NCBI GenBank assembly: GCA_963753165.1 | Contig: CAVWBP010000002.1 | Coordinates: 272,301-336,300, forward strand | From: Thermodesulfovibrionales bacterium | Lineage (GTDB): Bacteria > Nitrospirota > Thermodesulfovibrionia > Thermodesulfovibrionales > SM23-35 | Reading direction: 5' to 3' | Length of the DNA: 64,000 nucleotides | Part shown: positions 19,219-57,269 of the stretch, in pieces | Numbering within the stretch: the first letter of the stretch is position 1 | Layout of the letters: the number at the start of each line of letters is the position of its first letter | Notes under the pieces: model-generated | Databases searched by the model: none | Seen by the model: the letters and a program-made list of their open reading frames with translations, nothing else | What the model was told of the DNA's origin: nothing | Translations under genes and position numbers: made by a program

Positions 19219-19315
19219 TCAGTTATGATTGACAGAACTGTTTGTTTCTCATTATAGCAATTGTAAGGAATTCTGTGATATTCCGGCGATACTCTTTTTC
19301 ATACTGTTCAGGAAG

Positions 19316-19482
19316 AATGGGCAGGGATCAATTTCCAAATCGAAATAAACTCCCTCTGTTTCTCTGCAAATCTTTCTTTGACTTCAATGTGAGTGAAGTA
19401 TTGAAAGCTGAGACCTCCGCTTCGTCGCCGGTCTCTTCGAAGTTGCCCGTGATTTCGTTTCGGAAATCGAACCCGGCACATT
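19316..19482. repeat. Dispersed ~166-nt element, copy A (terminal inverted repeats 25/31 matched; internal hairpin GAGACC/GGTCTC)
   Basis: Aligns by eye with copies at 26605-26769 and 50510-50677; shared TAAACT(A/C)CC, TCCGCTTCGTC and CCCGTGATTT blocks. Confidence 0.85.
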
Positions 19483-24748: not shown

Positions 24749-25410
24749 TTCGTGGAACCTGCGGTGAATTGCGGGGAGTTTTTCCTGATCGAGAATTCAT
24801 TTTCCTTTACAAAAATCATGAAATAACCGATAACAGGGGGCAGTTGCCGTATTTTCGATTCGACCGTAACCCGCACATAATACGTCCCCGGCTCAAGATT
24901 GCTGATATTCGTGAGACGCTCATTTTCCAGGCTCAGTGCCCACCTGAGCATGGATTCAAACGATTTGAACCTTTTCTGGGTTACGATGCTGCCGTTGCTC
25001 GACGTAGCAACGAATTCTGTTTTTACCGGGTCCGATTTCAGCTTCCTGATGAGCTGTTTGCCCGATATGAATTCATCAGACCACATCCCCCATACCCGGT
25101 AAAGGTCGATATAGAAATGGAACTCCTTTTTCATGCCGTTCCGGAGTTCCTGGAGATATTTGTCGTCAAGGGAAAGCGTAGCGTCGACAAACAGCTCGCT
25201 GTTGCTGGTGGTGAGCGCCGGGCCTGATATTTCTGCGCCGGAGACGGGCGAAAAGGTGATGAGAAGAGCGACGAGAGGAAACAACAGGCAAAAAGGCAGT
25301 TTCAAAGCACGGAGCATCGAGAGCTTTGAAAACCTGTTCCTATGCTTGTACTTATATTGCGTATCGGAATACACTATGTGCCCTTTGATCCGGCATTTAT
25401 GGCTTGACAT
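24745..25410 (-). CDS. DUF4390-like exported protein (likely start ATG 25317)
   Basis: Signal-like segment, L..G....F...LYR..W.D pattern; position upstream of ntrY as commonly seen for DUF4390. Confidence 0.65.
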   Translation of the reverse strand: MSSHKCRIKGHIVYSDTQYKYKHRNRFSKLSMLRALKLPFCLLFPLVALLITFSPVSGAEISGPALTTSNSELFVDATLSLDDKYLQELRNGMKKEFHFYIDLYRVWGMWSDEFISGKQLIRKLKSDPVKTEFVATSSNGSIVTQKRFKSFESMLRWALSLENERLTNISNLEPGTYYVRVTVESKIRQLPPVIGYFMIFVKENEFSIRKNSPQFTAGSTK

Positions 25411-25559
25411 CTTCGGGAAAATTTATTTTCATTATAGCATAGCAAACGCAGTCATAAATCATTGGTCACGCCCGCAGGTGAAAATCTTATGGCCTTCACC
25501 AGGCCTGAATGACCGAAGATCACTGGCAAGAGATTGACAATATCTTAAGGGGGTGTCGC

Positions 25560-26042
25560 ATGGACGTAAAAGCAGTAAGCATAGAGATACCGGACGGGTG
25601 TAATATTATCCTCGGACAGACACACTTTATAAAGACCGCAGAGGACCTTTATGAGATTCTCGTAACTACCACCCCTCAGGCGAAGTTCGGGGTTGCCTTC
25701 ACCGAAGCATCGGGTCCATGCCTTATAAGGACAGAGGGGAACGATACTGAGTTGCTCTCTGTCTGTGTGAAGAACCTTAAGAGAATCGGCGCAGGGCATG
25801 TGTTCTGCATTCTCCTGAAGAATGCGTTCCCCATCAACGTCCTCAATCAGATAAAGAACTGCCCCGAGGTGTGCCGGATCTTCTGCGCGACCGCAAACCC
25901 CGTCGAAGTGGTAGTGGCTACAACGGAACAGGGGGGAGGTGTCCTCGGAGTAATAGACGGGTCTGCGCCGAAAGGGGTCGAGACCATCGAAGACAAAGGG
26001 CACCGGAAGGAATTTTTGAGGAAGATCGGCTATAAATTGTAG
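25560..26042 (+). CDS. Adenosine-specific kinase / DUF355 family
   Basis: NIILGQTHFIKTAED, FGVAFTEASGPCLIR, FPINVLNQIK..PEVCRIFCATANP, GVIDG..PKGVE. Confidence 0.9.
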   Translation: MDVKAVSIEIPDGCNIILGQTHFIKTAEDLYEILVTTTPQAKFGVAFTEASGPCLIRTEGNDTELLSVCVKNLKRIGAGHVFCILLKNAFPINVLNQIKNCPEVCRIFCATANPVEVVVATTEQGGGVLGVIDGSAPKGVETIEDKGHRKEFLRKIGYKL

Positions 26043-26072
26043 AGAAAAAGGAAAAGGAGTGAAAACGAACTC

Positions 26073-26393
26073 ATGATACCTGAACTGAAATACGACGAAA
26101 AAGGATTGATACCCGCCATCGTGCAGGATGTGGAGAATGGTGATGTTCTGATGCTGGCGTATATGAACAGCAAGTCCCTTGAGATGACCCTTGAAACAGG
26201 GTATACGCATTTCTGGTCGCGTTCGAGGCAGAAATACTGGAAAAAGGGTGAGACGTCAGGACATGTCCAGGAGGTCAAGGCAGTCCTTTACGATTGCGAT
26301 GCCGATACACTCCTGATCAAGGTGGTCCAGCATGGCCCCGGCGCCTGTCACACGGGCAACAGGACGTGTTTTTACCGGGATATTTCGAAGTAA
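26073..26393 (+). CDS. hisI: Phosphoribosyl-AMP cyclohydrolase
   Basis: [45 protein letters not shown]. Confidence 0.97.
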
Positions 26394-26406
26394 TAAGGAG
26401 GCAGAG

Positions 26407-26568
26407 ATGAGCAAATACCGCTGCAAAATATGCGGATACATCTATGACCCGGCAGAGGGAGACCCCGACGGGAATGTTCCGCCCGGCACACCGTTCGAGA
26501 ACCTGCCGGAAGACTGGAAGTGCCCGGTATGCGGTGCGGCGAAGGAGGAATTCGAGGAGATCGGGTAG
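26407..26568 (+). CDS. Rubredoxin
   Basis: [13 protein letters not shown]...PGTPFE.LP.DW.CPVCGA; RBS AAGGAG upstream. Confidence 0.96.
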
Positions 26569-26604
26569 GATTTCACTTGCCTGACCTATGAATTAATAGG
26601 CATA

Positions 26605-26769
26605 AGGGATATCGCTCAATTTACGAACCGAACTAAACTACCTTTATTTCTATGCAAACCTTTCTCTGACTGCAATGATATTGAAATATTGAAAGCTGAG
26701 ACCTCCGCTTCGTCTTCGGTCTCGTCAAAGTTACCCGTGATTTCGGTTCGCAAATTGAGCGGTATCCCT
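26605..26769. repeat. Dispersed ~166-nt element, copy B (terminal inverted repeats 27/30 matched)
   Basis: AGGGATATCGCTCAATTTACGAACCGAACT ... ATTTCGGTTCGCAAATTGAGCGGTATCCCT; hairpin 26698-26723. Confidence 0.88.
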
Positions 26770-26803
26770 ATATATTTGAACAAAAACAAACGAGCAATAA
26801 AAG

Positions 26804-27256
26804 TTACAGATATTTGATGATTGCGTGCTCGTCGCATTCAGGGAAGCGCGGGCAGCGCAGGCAGTCTCCCCATATCTTCTGAGGAAGGGTCGCCTTATCC
26901 ACGTCGGTAAAACCGAGCTTTTTGAAGAAATCAGGATGATACGTGAGCGCGAACACACGCTTGAGCCCGAGGGTTTTCGCCTCTCTGAGGCACTGCTTCA
27001 CAAGGGCTTTCCCGACGCCCCTATCCTGGAATTTCCCGTCGACAGCGAGTGAACGGATTTCGGCAAGGTCCTCCCACATGATATGGAGGGCGCAGACACC
27101 GCAGACGGTCCCGTCGATTTCGCACACGAAAAAATCCCTTACAGTCTCATACAGTTCACTGAGCGAACGAGGGATCATCTGCTCTTTTCTGGCAAAATCG
27201 TTCACCAGCTTGTGAACCTGTTTCAGGTCGGATATTTTAGTTTTTCGTATCTTCAA
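26804..27256 (-). CDS. argA: GNAT N-acetyltransferase, short ArgA type
   Basis: IPRSLSELYE..RDF, CALH..WEDLAEIRSLAV, FALTY...FF.KLGF, LPQKIW.DC..CP.FP.CDE. Confidence 0.8.
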   Translation of the reverse strand: MKIRKTKISDLKQVHKLVNDFARKEQMIPRSLSELYETVRDFFVCEIDGTVCGVCALHIMWEDLAEIRSLAVDGKFQDRGVGKALVKQCLREAKTLGLKRVFALTYHPDFFKKLGFTDVDKATLPQKIWGDCLRCPRFPECDEHAIIKYL

Positions 27257-27785
27257 TGTATTCTATCCCCTCATGAATGGCTTTTTTGTTCTGCTCGATA
27301 CTTTTCTTTCTGTCCACCGGCACCGAACTCTCCAACGCCTTAAGGAGAGAAGTTTCTTTCAGCAGCTGTGTCTTTGCAATAAATGCTCCGAGCAGCACCA
27401 TATTGGCCGATTTCGTATTCCCGATTTTATTTGCTCGTCCGGTGGCGGGTACCGCAACAGCCTTGATATCGGTCCTGAGCGATGAGTCTTTTATGAGTGA
27501 TGAGTCGAAAAGGAGCAGGCCATCCGGTTTCAGACGCGGCTGGAATTTTTCTAACGATGCGTCGTTCATTACAACGAGAGTGTCGGGGTTCATCACCACG
27601 GGAGATCCTATGAGTTCATCCGAAATTATTACGGTACAGCTTGCGGTTCCTCCCCTCACCTCTGCTCCGTAAGAGGGGAACCAGGTGACTTCTTTGCCTT
27701 CAAGCATGCCGGCATGCGCGAGTATCCTCCCGAAAAACAGTATGCCCTGGCCGCCAAAACCTCCGATGATTATCCGGTGTTTCAG
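27237..27785 (-). CDS. 2-oxoacid:acceptor oxidoreductase gamma subunit; apparent CTG start right after the beta-subunit stop
   Basis: In-frame extension of the track ORF gives LKHRIIIGGFGGQGILFFG; SYGAEVRGG, NMVLLGA motifs. Confidence 0.88.
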   Translation of the reverse strand: MKHRIIIGGFGGQGILFFGRILAHAGMLEGKEVTWFPSYGAEVRGGTASCTVIISDELIGSPVVMNPDTLVVMNDASLEKFQPRLKPDGLLLFDSSLIKDSSLRTDIKAVAVPATGRANKIGNTKSANMVLLGAFIAKTQLLKETSLLKALESSVPVDRKKSIEQNKKAIHEGIEYIEDTKN

Positions 27786-50255: not shown

Positions 50256-50317
50256 GGCTGGGAACTTGTTGATTAATAAACAAAAAAAACAAAATGCTGG
50301 TTTTTACCCCTGAATAT

Positions 50318-50453
50318 CCTACAATATTGTAGGTACGGTATCGGGAGTCTGCAGGGGAGCATAGATATTTTCCCTTATTTTTCAACATCCGGCGCGGATT
50401 AAGGCATGTCAAAGAGCATTCCTACAAATTTGTATGAACAACAAATTTGTAGG
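50318..50453. promoter_or_regulatory. Three palindromic sites, consensus CTACAAWWTTGTAG (50318-50333, 50421-50436, 50438-50453)
   Basis: CCTACAATATTGTAGG is a perfect palindrome; the same motif recurs at 53631-53664. Confidence 0.75.
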
Positions 50454-50509
50454 ATTGAGAAGAGATCAGTTACCTCTGTCCAAAATATTGATTCAGATTG
50501 CGGGAAAGC

Positions 50510-50677
50510 AAGGGATATGGCTCAATTTCCAAAGCAAAATAAACTACCTTTGAGAAATATCCTGGCTTCATCTGTATTGTAGTGTTCGTATACAATCCAG
50601 AGTTGAGGCTTCCGCTTCGTCTCCAGCCTCATCGAGATTGCCCGTGATTTTGCTTTGGAAATTGAGCCATATCCCTT
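50510..50677. repeat. Dispersed ~166-nt element, copy C (perfect 31-bp terminal inverted repeats)
   Basis: AAGGGATATGGCTCAATTTCCAAAGCAAAAT and its exact reverse complement at 50647-50677; hairpin GAGGCT/AGCCTC at 50605-50630. Confidence 0.9.
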
Positions 50678-50734
50678 CTTTAAAATATCCTGGACAGCAA
50701 TGATAACCAATAGAAACGAATCGGGAAGTCCGCG

Positions 50735-51094: not shown

Positions 51095-51150
51095 AGTCAT
51101 TCGTCAATAGTCACCGATCATAATAAATCAATGACTATTGACTCTTGACT
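51095..51150. other. Long intergenic stem-loop between amt and glnK
   Basis: GTCAATAGTCA / TGACTATTGAC inverted repeat with outer AGTCA/TGACT arms. Confidence 0.6.
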
Positions 51151-51153
51151 GTT

Positions 51154-52530
51154 TTACAGACTGTACGCTTTCTCACCATGCTGGCTTTCGTCAAGCCCGG
51201 TGATCTCATGTTCAGATTCAACTCTCACTCCGAGCACCGCCCGGGCGATCACGAAGATAATCAGCGTCATCACCCCGCTGTATGCGATTGTTACACCCAC
51301 TGCGATCAGCTGAGTGATCAACTGACCCGGGTTCCCGTAGAGGAGACCGGTACCGGCTGAGTTGACTGCAGGATCTGCAAACACACCGGTCAGTATGGCG
51401 CCGAGGATACCGCCGACACCATGGATGCCAAAGGCGTCGAGCGCGTCGTCATATCCGAGCTTCGGCTTGATGCTCGCAACTGCGAAATAGGGCACGATAC
51501 CCGCGAGGATGCCGATGATTATCGCGCCTTGAATATTCACAAACCCTGCCGCAGGGGTTATTGCAACAAGACCTGCGATCGCACCGGAAGCAAGACCAAG
51601 CACCGTGGGCTTCTTCGTATGCATCCATTCCGTGAACATCCAGGACATTGCTGCGAGCGCGGTTGCGGTGTTGGTATTGATGAAAGCCACCCCGGCAAGT
51701 CCGTTCGCTGCAACCGCAGAGCCGGCATTAAACCCGAACCACCCGAACCAGAGAAGCCCGGCGCCGGTAACCACAAGGGTCAGGTTGCTCGGTTTGAGAG
51801 ATGCTTCATGTCTCTTGCCGAGGACCAGGGCGCCGACGAGCGCTGCAATACCTGCGTTTACATGTACCACTGTGCCGCCTGCAAAATCGAGGGCCCCGAG
51901 CTGCGCAAGAAACCCGCCGCCCCATACCCAATGGGCTACGGGAACATATACCAGCGTCATCCAGAGTATCGAGAAGAGTATCCAGGCGGAGAATTTCATC
52001 CTCTCAATGAATGCGCCGCTTGCAAGCGCTACCGTGATCGCTGCGAATGTCATCTGAAATACTATAAAAATGTATTCAGGGATGGTCATCGACAGACTTT
52101 CAACAGTCACCCCGGAAAGGAAGAGCTTTTCAGCGCTCCCGATGAATCCACCGATGTCCGAACCGAAAGTGAACGTATACCCGTAGGCAATCCACAGGAA
52201 ACTTACGATGCAGTAAGTTACAAAAGACATCGCCATGGTATTAAGAGTATCTTTTCTTTTCGCGAGACCGCCGTAAAACAGCGCAAGCCCCGGAAGTGTC
52301 ATCAGCATTACGAGCGCGGTAGCGACAATCATCCAGGCGGTATCGCCCGTGTCGAGTGTGGGAGCAGGGGCCTCCGAAACTGCCGGAACCGCTTCGTCCA
52401 TAGGGGCTGGCTGAGCAGGCAAAGCCTGCTCAGCTGCTGGAAGGGAAGGAGGGTTAGCCTGCTCTTCAGCAAAAGCCCATCCGCTTAAAAGCGCCAGCGT
52501 TAGTATCGTGAATACAACAAGATTCTTCAT
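51154..52530 (-). CDS. amt: Ammonium transporter (Amt), second paralog
   Basis: [40 protein letters not shown]. Confidence 0.97.
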
Positions 52531-54098: not shown

Positions 54099-56131
54099 TT
54101 GGCGTGCTGCATGTCAAACATCTGCTACTCGCATCCGTTGCTTAATATGTTAGATGAAGATTACAGATATGAGCAAGACGATGTTATTACCAACAATTTT
54201 TACAGCGACTACATTCAGAAGGCCCCCATTTTTCTCAAGAACGATGCACAAAAACTACGAGAGTTTATTAAAGCCAACGTCAAATACGGAGACAAAAATC
54301 AAATTATGTACCGTATTGATCATGGCAAGATAAAACCATCAAAGAACCTTGCAGATAACCTTGTATCGATGCTTAAGGGTAACGAAGAGTTCATGATGAT
54401 TGACGACCAGAAAGTTGTCTACGAAACGGCTATCAAGCTTGCTGAGAAGTCTTCAGCAAAGAAGAAAAATGTGTTGATCGTTGAAGGCGGCCCAGGAACC
54501 GGTAAATCCGTAGTGGCAATTAATCTGCTTGTTGAACTAACAAAACGCGAACTTGTTGCTCAATATGTGACGCGCAACTCCGCACCCCGCTTGGTGTACG
54601 AAGCCATGCTCACCGGCACGTTCACGAGAACTCATATATCAAATATGTTCAGTGGTTCCGGCTCGTACCATTCAACTGAAGCAAACAGTTTTCGATTGTT
54701 TGATTGTCGATGAAGCGCACAGGCTAAACGCGAAATCAGGGATGTTTAACCATCTTGGTGAAAACCAGATTAAGGAGATAATCAGCGCCAGTAAGTGTAG
54801 TTTATTCTTTATAGACGAAGACCAAAAGGTGACCCTCAAAGACATTGGTGATAAGGAAGAAATCCGCCGTTGGGCAGTAAAGCAAAGAGCAAATGTTACT
54901 GAACTCAAACTAGAATCACAATTTCGTTGCAATGGCTCAGACGGGTACCTTGCCTGGCTTGACAATACGCTACAGATTCGAGAAACTGCAAATGACACAC
55001 TCAACGTTAGTGAATATGATTTTCGCATATTGGACAGCCCAACTGAACTGCATAATATTGATACGTGAGAAAAACAGTGAAAAGAACAAAGCGCGTATGG
55101 TGGCAGGCTACTGCTGGAAATGGATCAGCAAAAAGAAACCAGAACTCAAAGATATTGTTATAGATGGTTACAAAGCGACTTGGAATCTCGACACCGATGG
55201 GCAAGCCTGGATTATTAAACCAAATTCAGTCAACGAAGTCGGATGCATACACACCTGTCAGGGATTAGAATTAGATTATGTTGGAGTGATAGTCGGCCCC
55301 GACCTGGTAGTTCGCGGTAGTAAAGTAAAAACACAACCTGAAAAACGGGCAAGTACGGACAGGTCTATTCACGGGTGGAAACAAATGATAGAAGACGAGC
55401 CAAGAGACACGAGGACGCGCCTTGATGCGATTATCAAAAACACTTACCGGACACTCATGACCCGCGGGCAAAAAGGCTGCTATGTTTACTTTATCGATAA
55501 AGAAACTGAAAGATTTTTTAGAACTCGTATCGAAGCAACAGCCTTAGAAAATGATGTTGTAAGGAACGTTGTGCCTTTGTCTATCCGTAGGCAAGTATCT
55601 CCCAGTTTGCCATTTCGCCGGTTACCTATTAATGAAGTGGTTCCTTTCAAGAACTGCGTGCCTATCTATGATCTAAAAGTGGCCGCAGGTCGATTTAGCG
55701 ATGAGCAGCGGGTTGCTGAAGTGGTTCAAGGGGCGGAGTTGCAGCATCCAGAAGATTATGAGTGGGCTGAACTGCCAAGCGTCTTTCGGCCACAACAGGG
55801 TTTATTTATAGCTCAGGTAATAGGCGAATCTATGAACCGGCGCATCCCTAATGGCGCGTGGTGCTTATTCAGATTGTCACCGGTTGGCACGCGCCAAGGG
55901 AAAGTCGTACTTGTACAACATAGAGAAATTCATGATGCTGATACCGGCGGACATTTTACAGTAAAGACTTATGAAAGCAAAAAAGAGATTTTCCCAGATG
56001 GAACGTGGAAACATAGTCAAATTATCCTAAGACCAGAAACTACGGCGCTTGGATATGAGCCAATTGTATTGAACCCAGAATCTGCGGAAGATTTGCGTGC
56101 CATTGCAGAATTGATTGCTGTGCTTGGATAA
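54099..56131 (+). pseudogene. DUF2075 (Schlafen group 3-like) helicase fused to an S24/LexA-like peptidase domain; N-terminus apparently missing, two frameshifts (~54690, ~55060)
   Basis: GGPGTGKS Walker A, IVDEAHRL, SQFRC.GS.GY, HTCQGLELDYVGVI, YRTLMTRG; C-terminal IYDL.VAAG.F, GESM (Ser) and TVK (Lys). Confidence 0.8.
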
Positions 56132-56361: not shown

Positions 56362-56736
56362 ATGAATAAAGAGAAACTGCCGGCTAATATAAAAGTACAT
56401 CCGAGTGTCTTGAGGAGCATCAGGGAAATTGCAGTCCTTGATGAGGAGAAGGCAGGAAAGATTATGCAGAGGATCGTTGGACTGGGGTTGGACCCGTTAC
56501 CTGTGAGCGGCGAATGTAAGTCTGAGACGATCATTAACCTTAGAAAGAAAAGAGTTCTCGTCAAACGGCTCAAATGTCTGGATATCATGCAGTACAGAAT
56601 ATTTTACGCTTATAAAAAATCCGGTTTGATTTGCGTGTATTGCGTTGTTCCGAGGGATAAGGATACCTATAATGAAAATTCATGGCATTATCAAATGGTA
56701 AAGCTTCTTTATGCAAAGTGGAAGGAGTGTCAATGA
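56362..56736 (+). CDS. RelE/HigB-superfamily toxin
   Basis: I...I..LGLDPLP, KRLK...YRIFY, VYCVVPR..TY pattern; first gene of a three-gene operon. Confidence 0.7.
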   Translation: MNKEKLPANIKVHPSVLRSIREIAVLDEEKAGKIMQRIVGLGLDPLPVSGECKSETIINLRKKRVLVKRLKCLDIMQYRIFYAYKKSGLICVYCVVPRDKDTYNENSWHYQMVKLLYAKWKECQ

Positions 56737-57269
56737 CCTCAATTGAAAATCTGCGTTATGAACCTGTTTCTCCATATCAATGGCAATACCCTTTTCAGGT
56801 TATTCCCGTTGCTGATCTTGAGAAGATCTGCGAGACCTGTGACTCGATAAAGGACAAGCACCTTGAGAAGCTCAAGGTTGAAAACAGAAAGCTTAAAAAA
56901 CATATTGCGTTTCTGCAAAATGAAGTGCAGGCATTGGAGTTAAAAACCGCCCTGACAGCGAAGGCTGTTCCCCTTGAGGATATGGTTGCAGAGGTAACCT
57001 CAACGCCTGAAGGTAAGAAAGCATGGGATGAAGCCTGGAAAGAGCAGATCGAGAAATGGCGGAGTCAAATGGAGGCAAGTGCCATCAGCCGGGTGAAATA
57101 TTACCGTCTTCTCAACGGGATGGATCAAAAGACTCTGGCTGAGAAACTCGGCACGGCTCAACCGAACATCAGCAGAATTGAACGTCCGGGCTATAATGTG
57201 CCTGTTGTGACATTAAGAAAGCTTGCGAAGATTTATAACGTAACGATGGAGGATCTCCTTGGCGGTTGA
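56733..57269 (+). CDS. HigA-like XRE-HTH antitoxin with ~80-aa N-terminal extension
   Basis: ATGA overlap with the toxin stop; C-terminal HTH (YRLLNGMDQKTLAEKLGTAQPNISRIER...TLRKLAKIYNVTMEDLL). Confidence 0.8.
   Translation: MTSIENLRYEPVSPYQWQYPFQVIPVADLEKICETCDSIKDKHLEKLKVENRKLKKHIAFLQNEVQALELKTALTAKAVPLEDMVAEVTSTPEGKKAWDEAWKEQIEKWRSQMEASAISRVKYYRLLNGMDQKTLAEKLGTAQPNISRIERPGYNVPVVTLRKLAKIYNVTMEDLLGG

Follow-up and report, generated by a model that had tools for sequence, protein, structure and literature searches.

The three dispersed repeats in the window, i.e., the 64-kb stretch of DNA analyzed here, are very probably copies of a MITE, a non-autonomous transposon, with a length of about 230 bp; the 166 nt originally delimited represent its inner part. 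The assignment follows from the combination of a small non-coding unit with terminal inverted repeats, target duplications of fixed length, many copies and insertion polymorphism. The family is uncatalogued, has no match in Rfam and is abundant in Nitrospirota of the Thermodesulfovibrionales type, which are known largely through MAGs; as selfish DNA, it is of an ordinary kind. This reading removes a false lead, in that the repeats would constitute neither a new ribozyme nor a guide RNA nor an HUH element. Repeats of this kind break assemblies, occupy promoter regions and can mimic structured RNAs in covariation screens; in the present family, exchange and inversion between inverted arms can yield apparent compensatory changes without selection on an RNA.

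Three copies in the window

The initial annotation described a structured element of about 166 nt with three equally oriented copies, and three homologous copies in one orientation are present at 19316-19482, 26605-26769 and 50510-50677 (nhmmer E-values of 3e-51, 4e-51 and 9e-48 with a profile built from the three). Their alignment (A1) has a mean column identity of 79%. The inverted arms ascribed to the element were recovered as well, with 31 nt and 100% complementarity in copy 3 and 28 nt and 93% complementarity in copy 2. The loop motif regarded as invariant, TCCGCTTCGTC, occurs exactly at 19416, 26704 and 50611, each time inside the loop of a 6-bp hairpin, and the right junction block TT(G/A)CCCGTGATTT exactly at 19443, 26731 and 50638. 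Within the 64-kb window, both motifs are restricted to the three copies, and motif and nhmmer searches yielded no further copy. The reported contexts next to unrelated genes are likewise correct. Copy 1, in a divergent context, has a DUF362/4Fe-4S gene on one side and a divergent FAD flavoprotein gene on the other; copy 2, in a convergent one, is located where a rubredoxin-like ORF and a GNAT acetyltransferase gene end; and copy 3, in a tandem one, separates P-II (glnB-like) from an ammonium transporter gene of the minus strand.

The unit of about 166 nt holds as the core of the element but not as the whole of it, as homology in copy 3 runs from 50471 to 50702 (232 bp) and includes outer terminal repeats. 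In copy 1, no right outer end is recognizable. The features of the window are:

19300..19315, unstranded: putative left outer remnant of copy 1 (CATACTGT..TCAGG, internal deletion), assigned by comparison with the consensus
19316..19482, unstranded: core of copy 1, with the loop motif at 19416-19426, the hairpin at 19410-19435 and TTGCCCGTGATTT at 19443-19455
26036..26072, unstranded: intergenic site without the element, upstream of a gene that starts at 26073; occupied in the related metagenome contig L149
26574..26604 (approximate), unstranded: putative decayed left outer remnant of copy 2 (CACTTGCCTGACC...), by comparison with the consensus
26605..26769, unstranded: core of copy 2, with arms at 26605-26632 and 26742-26769 and the loop motif at 26704-26714
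26770..26799 (approximate), unstranded: putative decayed right outer remnant of copy 2 (...ACGAGCAAT)
50471..50702, unstranded: copy 3, a complete MITE of 232 bp with both outer termini, according to the family consensus
50471..50509, unstranded: long outer arm of copy 3 (TACCTCTGTCCAAAATATTGATTCAGATTGCGGGAAAGC)
50474-50489: outer terminus of copy 3, CTCTGTCCAAAATATT, with its inverted partner at 50684-50699
50510..50540, unstranded: inner left arm of copy 3 (31 nt), pairing with 50647-50677 (100% complementary; family covariation)
50605..50630, unstranded: conserved hairpin of copy 3, GAGGCT-[TCCGCTTCGTCTCC]-AGCCTC
50647..50677, unstranded: inner right arm of copy 3, complementary to 50510-50540
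50678..50702, unstranded: short outer arm of copy 3 (CTTTAAAATATCCTGGACAGCAATG)

Outer termini, target duplications and empty sites

In eight copies from one MAG, homology reaches 25-40 nt past the original limits at either end. It breaks off at two sequences that form an inverted repeat, 5'-CATTGCTGTCCAAAATATT... and ...TTTGGACAGGTATG-3'. The same outer ends are found in other genomes and in copy 3. The unit of about 230 bp is thus delimited by the outer terminal inverted repeats 5'-CATTGCTGTCCAAAATATT ... AATATTTTGGACAGNNATG-3', with a right end consensus of AATATTTTGGACAG(C/G)(A/T)ATG-3'; in a shorter form, the pair of termini reads CATTGCTGTCC.../...GGACAGNNATG. The distance between the termini amounts to 228-233 bp. 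Nested within the outer ends lies a second pair of inverted arms of 28-31 bp, which enclose an interior of about 105 nt, and either strand is consequently able to form a long hairpin. Of the two outer arms, one is short and the other long, which makes the outer frame asymmetric. The coding capacity of the unit is restricted to short, non-conserved ORFs.

Target-site duplications were assessed in 19 copies whose termini both lie within three mismatches of the consensus, by comparison of the flanking 9-mers. Six of these copies match in 9/9 positions, three in 8/9 and two in 7/9, while random pairing of the flanking 9-mers gives at least 8/9 in about 2.6% of cases. One more copy, in locus L024, is flanked by a 9/9 match once its end is shifted by 2 nt. 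The perfect duplications are TCTTGTAAT, ATTTTATTC, TTTCTTCAT, ATTGAAGTT and, twice, ATATTCATC, the latter two representing one orthologous pair. For the three copies of the window, no target duplication is detectable, the flanks of copy 3 agreeing in 4/9 positions.

Empty sites, the search for which had been recommended, were found in two cases. Locus L114 contains the target sequence of about 9 nt only once where its relative L225 carries the element between AATTAAGAT and AGTTAATAT, and the window itself is unoccupied at 26036-26072, a site that is occupied in L149. Comparison across copies indicates that the outer ends decay after insertion: in about half of all copies, including copies 1 and 2 of the window, they are decayed or partly deleted while the core is intact. 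Outer inverted repeats, target duplications, numerous copies and empty sites together bear out the earlier view that the repeat is a dispersed mobile element and not a cis riboswitch.

Copy number and hosts

A first pattern scan of 185,579 species genomes was too loose and returned at least 119 loci, mostly by chance, 14 of which were kept by nhmmer. The copies of this genome scan comprise at least 14 loci in at least six MAGs, all of them Nitrospirota among the matches listed. At least eight loci belong to the single “Nitrospiraceae” MAG MFD05942.bin.3.50, and the other carriers are two Thermodesulfovibrionales, two unclassified Nitrospirota and one Dissulfurispiraceae MAG, again among the matches listed. 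A stricter pattern retrieved 111 metagenome contigs, including some of wetland-sediment origin, so that MAG loci and metagenome contigs together contain at least about 125 copies according to nhmmer. As both scans required the core motif, the limits of the family and the apparent invariance of the motif are biased. As far as sampled, and among the matches listed, the family is confined to Nitrospirota. The core pattern has no match in the viral contigs, and blastn produced no match in plasmids. The window is absent from the fetched contigs; two of these, L165 and L233, are orthologs of parts of it with 93-96% identity. Judging from the distribution of the family, the window would come from a Nitrospirota genome. 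Full-text literature searches yielded no relevant publication on MITEs in connection with Nitrospirae or Thermodesulfovibrio.

Several loci contain rearranged copies. The partial nhmmer matches in L128, L130, L139, L151, L154 and L225 were considered as IS ends and rejected, as they are rearranged or truncated copies of the MITE. L106 (4248-4520) and L130 (1108-1176) represent the same locus, with flanks that are 100% identical, and thus a structural polymorphism of a single copy: L106 harbors a full copy with a 105-bp insertion in the interior, and in L130 half of the interior is missing together with the left arm and the left end. For copy 3, the ortholog in L233 is 96% identical and carries the element in the same orientation. 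In the ortholog L231:3340-3733 (ENA ERZ25039603 contig_82191), only the amt-proximal arm and outer end are kept and the remainder of the element is replaced by unrelated sequence. In a third ortholog, L234:1551-2049, the sequence past the second arm folds back, continuing as the upstream flank in reverse complement; the hairpin has probably given rise to this as an artefact of assembly. Among the P-II orthologs, none was found to offer a clean empty site for copy 3. For the DUF362 protein next to copy 1, an exact-match look-up returned no entry.

The same genomes contain a second family of small, G/C-rich palindromic repeats of the CCCCTC...GAGGGG type, for example at L128:1700-1960 and at about 3900-4100 in L114. 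These repeats also occur in the flanks of MITE copies in L172, L156 and L217, and in L128 most of a MITE interior has given way to such a repeat. The window contains none of them.

Covariation of the arms and inversion of the core

The initial annotation pointed out that both arms change together, and this co-change persists with more copies. Among 85 distinct copies, 26 of the 28 pairs of the long stem have changed on both sides, and 96.7% of the cells are paired as compared to 85.6% in shuffles, none of 500 shuffles reaching the observed value. Pairing of the stem is thereby supported, yet its value as proof of selection on structure is weakened by inversion of the core and by mosaicism.

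Inversion is evident from orthologous loci. L165 is orthologous to positions 24830-27271 of the window, with flanks that are 94-96% identical and copy 2 at the same site; its interior of about 105 nt is reverse-complemented relative to that of the window, while the outer remnants are collinear. The pairs L124/L131 and L134/L160 exhibit the same inversion, with junctions conserved right up to the arms, and in L142/L159 the interior is inverted between the inner arms, too. In total, an inverted interior was identified in five of eight diverged orthologous pairs, the fifth being less certain. No flip was seen in any of 12 near-identical pairs of different sample origin, which indicates slow evolutionary inversion and not an assembly artefact. 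Typing of the outer frame in the intact asymmetric copies assigned the canonical core orientation to 24 of them and the reverse orientation to two, including copy 3, whose core is accordingly flipped relative to its outer frame in comparison with most intact copies.

Exchange between copies is equally apparent. L142 and L159 share a common insertion frame and distinctive arms (…GAAGAGAGAT) and contain interiors of two different hairpin haplotypes. Several “orthologous” cores resemble paralogs elsewhere more than they resemble one another, and arms and interiors from different sub-lineages have been recombined. Recombination between the arms of a copy and between copies is thus directly visible and is able to alter or exchange both arms at once, and we infer that such recombination is the main reason for the co-changing arms. 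The covariation is thus largely explained at the DNA level; given inversion and mosaicism, covariation of the stem alone does not show selection on an RNA.

Interior and conserved motifs

In agreement with the statement that the element belongs to no recognized family, Rfam gave no match in the window at the gathering threshold, and around the three copies (E≤10) only hairpin-like noise with E-values of at least 0.57. Between the arms, a single 6-bp hairpin is consistently paired. It occurs in two haplotypes, GAGACC/GGTCTC and GAGGCT/AGCCTC, and as its two covarying pairs correspond to these two linked haplotypes, they reflect only one or two events. Folding of the interior was no better than that of shuffled sequences (mean z-scores of -0.36 and -0.34 for the two strands). 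Mutual information and a helix scan detected no additional helices in the interior, and strong correlations outside of the stem reflect two sub-lineages. Scans for a sigma-70 promoter or a terminator shared by the three copies were negative. The notion of a structured interior that serves as a guide or ribozyme is at odds with an interior that folds no better than shuffles and has kept one 6-bp hairpin.

Conservation of the motif blocks, which comprise the loop motif and two junction blocks, was evaluated in a pattern-independent set, i.e., four full copies that were found only through their proximity to a pattern match. In these copies, 79 of 84 cells (94%) of the 21 motif columns agree with the consensus, as compared to 78% in the arms and 72% in the rest of the interior. 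The interior is thus conserved as claimed insofar as its motif blocks exceed the remaining sequence, and these blocks are really constrained, though not invariant. One orthologous pair that was also found independently of the pattern has decayed motifs, and individual copies therefore look neutral after insertion.

A small peptide was considered as an explanation for the conserved loop region, which reads MRPKTKRRSQL and ITGNLDETEDEAEV in two frames. It was rejected as the start codon is not conserved, being absent from copy 1, and as the conserved block is contiguous and devoid of a third-position pattern.

With respect to the genomic context, divergent intergenic regions are enriched over convergent ones (29 vs. 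11). In tandem contexts, 25 copies are in the same sense and 16 antisense to the flanking ORFs, based on crude ORF calling. This lack of an orientation bias toward neighboring genes argues against a sense-specific cis role in host mRNAs.

Strand asymmetry of the stem

Stem mismatches are distributed unequally between the two strands. Consensus folding with alifold yielded -56.8 kcal/mol for the minus strand vs. -32.8 kcal/mol for the plus strand, plus being the orientation of the original description. Over all 39 predicted pairs, 271 mismatch cells are G·U on the minus strand and 24 are of the opposite type; for the long stem, counted by locus group, the numbers are 121 and 20. Among mismatch states that have spread to at least four loci, 10/10 are G·U on the minus strand (p = 0.002). 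States found at two or three loci are split seven to four in the same direction, and states private to one locus are symmetric (10 vs. 11). Intermediates between A-U and G-C in the stem are always G·U. At unpaired columns, transitions are nearly symmetric (285 vs. 233), and mutation bias does not explain the asymmetry of the stem. This uniform minus-strand G·U state of the widely shared mismatches suggests that a single strand, either RNA or ssDNA, is under constraint. The asymmetry rests on about 10 mutational events, and any mechanism behind it is putative.

The simplest scenario, albeit a tentative one, is that lineages which spread or persist would need a stable hairpin in the minus-sense single strand, with individual copies decaying neutrally after insertion. 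The likeliest setting of such a hairpin would be RNA produced upon co-transcription, as with Correia elements and RNase III. The core of the MITE could, in this case, be a functional, strand-specific module, whose minus-sense transcript or ssDNA hairpin acts through its conserved motifs, for example as a site for RNase III or other processing that alters the stability of neighboring mRNAs, or as a structure needed for amplification of the element. This is a possibility that we would rather doubt than endorse. It is consistent with the exclusive G·U state of the 10 widely shared stem mismatches and of the A-U/G-C intermediates, with the absence of a comparable mutation bias at unpaired columns, and with motif blocks that are 94% conserved in the pattern-independent copies vs. 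72-78% elsewhere, and RNase III processing of Correia elements provides a precedent (PMC10969869, PMC2649163). However, private mismatches are symmetric (10 vs. 11), the pattern-independent orthologous pair has lost its motifs, orientation is unbiased with respect to host genes, no promoter is conserved in the element and the interior is not unusually stable. Moreover, the core flips, so that a fixed promoter outside of it would make either sense.

A more specific version, according to which only those lineages spread or persist that keep a stable minus-strand hairpin of about 30 bp with the GACGAAGCGGA loop and the AUCACGGG / AGGUAGUUUA junctions, appears rather unlikely. If true, it would imply either a MITE-borne regulatory or processing RNA across Nitrospirota or a DDE-type MITE that amplifies via a single-strand hairpin. 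To our knowledge, the latter kind of MITE has not been described.

Alternative readings of the core

The recurrent inversion of the interior, seen in five of eight diverged orthologous pairs, raises the question of an inverton, i.e., a programmed switch operated by a site-specific recombinase on the conserved arm center CTCAATTTC/GAAATTGAG; the center of each arm is indeed near-invariant and its flanks are variable. Such a switch is very unlikely given that none of the 12 near-identical pairs is flipped, which is the signature of slow inversion and not of phase variation, that the interior lacks a promoter and that a single orientation is common to 24 of 26 intact asymmetric copies. Correia elements, in addition, are known to invert passively between their repeats, according to a reference quoted in PMC10969869.

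Similarly little weight can be given to the idea that the copies constitute a family of genes for a trans-acting structured RNA (a guide, ribozyme or regulator) with incidental transposon-like features. In its favor are a long covarying stem, a conserved hairpin loop, the minus-strand wobble signature and the absence of a known-family match. The unit is, however, defined by 9-bp target duplications and outer inverted repeats, has no conserved promoter or terminator and shows no conserved helices apart from the stem and one hairpin. Furthermore, interiors are inverted and mosaic, copies number in the dozens with decaying ends, and no associated protein gene accompanies the three window contexts.

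Transposition of the MITE and its putative transposase

For the MITE, a transposase encoded elsewhere would bind the outer ends and insert the unit across a 9-bp staggered cut. This enzyme would probably be a DDE transposase of an IS4-like family, as suggested by the 5'-CAT ends and the 9-bp duplication, features that presumably fit IS4-like families. IS4-family elements have 5'-CA(T) termini and target duplications of 9-12 bp.

An autonomous partner with a transposase between the same ends, as envisaged in the initial annotation, was searched for by fuzzy matches to the 19-nt terminus and by inverted pairs of such matches 0.5-4 kb apart in all loci. The fetched loci (1.3 Mb), the window, the viral contigs and plasmids yielded no such element, and the choice of a transposase family is consequently a guess. 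Three terminus matches in viral contigs were dismissed as chance, all lying inside one phage gene, and Pfam detected no transposase among the ORFs of the low-GC parts of the window. The sole yield from the loci is an orphan terminus upstream of a gene in L132 and L163. This terminus-like sequence, CATTGCTATTCAAAATACT, is located at L132:5059-5077 and L163:5853-5871 just upstream of the gene, and the core is absent nearby.

The proposal of a non-autonomous ssDNA element moved by an HUH/RAYT or IS200/IS605-type transposase has next to no probability, for although the stem is hairpin-forming and strand-asymmetric, the terminal inverted repeats are bordered by clean 9-bp duplications, whose nine distinct 9-mers speak against a conserved target motif in place of duplications, an IS605-related Rfam match is absent, and a 9-bp duplication denotes a staggered double-strand cut (DDE-type insertion), which rules out single-strand transposition. 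HUH-mediated single-strand transposition proceeds without target duplication and relies on subterminal hairpins, not on terminal inverted repeats.

Comparison with known elements

Like the Nitrospirota MITE, the Correia elements (CREE) of Neisseria are small and non-coding, with inverted-repeat arms around a conserved core and many intergenic copies. Their core can also invert between the repeats, they often adjoin promoters, and they form a long hairpin in transcripts (PMC2649163; PMC10969869). Processing of Correia elements by RNase III is documented (PMC2649163; PMC10969869), and inversion between their repeats has been published (Elbeyioglu 2017, cited in PMC10969869). CREE measure 100-155 bp, have repeats of about 26 bp and a TA duplication and reside in Neisseria, whereas the Nitrospirota MITE measures about 230 bp and has nested outer and inner repeats (about 60 bp per side) and varied 9-bp duplications. 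Membership in Correia/CREE was thus rejected, as duplication length, size and host set the two apart by description.

QMITE2 of Coxiella burnetii is described in PMC10969869 as combining 7-9-bp direct repeats, 23-29-bp repeats and a 113-145-bp core that folds into a very stable hairpin. Compared by description, QMITE2 and similar MITEs (ERIC/IRU, RUP, Nezha) resemble the Nitrospirota MITE in overall architecture and differ from it in their hosts. Going by their descriptions, the MITE is closest in architecture and behavior to Correia/CREE and QMITE2 and a member of neither, target duplication, size and host being different.

IS4-family elements and their MITE derivatives (e.g., MIC231 from IS231) are alike in their 5'-CA(T) ends and duplication length; with neither a transposase gene nor a full-length IS with the MITE's ends found, the assignment to this family is a lead. 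We know of no report of a strand-specific wobble pattern or of mosaic and inverted cores for QMITE2, ERIC/IRU, RUP or Nezha. In chloroplast non-coding DNA, small hairpin loops recurrently flip between short inverted repeats while the stem is maintained. This flipping is like that of the MITE interior, but the chloroplast hairpins are not mobile elements.

Additional observations in the window

At the copy 3 locus, two amt genes flank P-II. Between the second ammonium transporter gene (51154-52530) and glnB, positions 51095-51150 contain a 24-nt imperfect inverted repeat with an 8-nt spacer. The glnB-amt intergenic region also includes palindromes outside of the MITE, at 50420-50454 and about 50312-50335 (TCCTACAAATTTGT...ACAAATTTGTAGGA and CCTACAATATTGTAGG). 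Both are conserved in the orthologs L231 and L233 and may be putative regulator binding sites upstream of the ammonium transporter gene.

Elsewhere in the window, two ORFs each contain part of a split Schlafen-group-3-like helicase; the second ORF also includes an S24 peptidase-like part, and an HTH_3 protein is encoded after it (54099-54713, 54932-56131 and 56682-57269). With a GC content of about 0.44 vs. about 0.49 elsewhere, this region may represent a disrupted defence gene or a prophage remnant.
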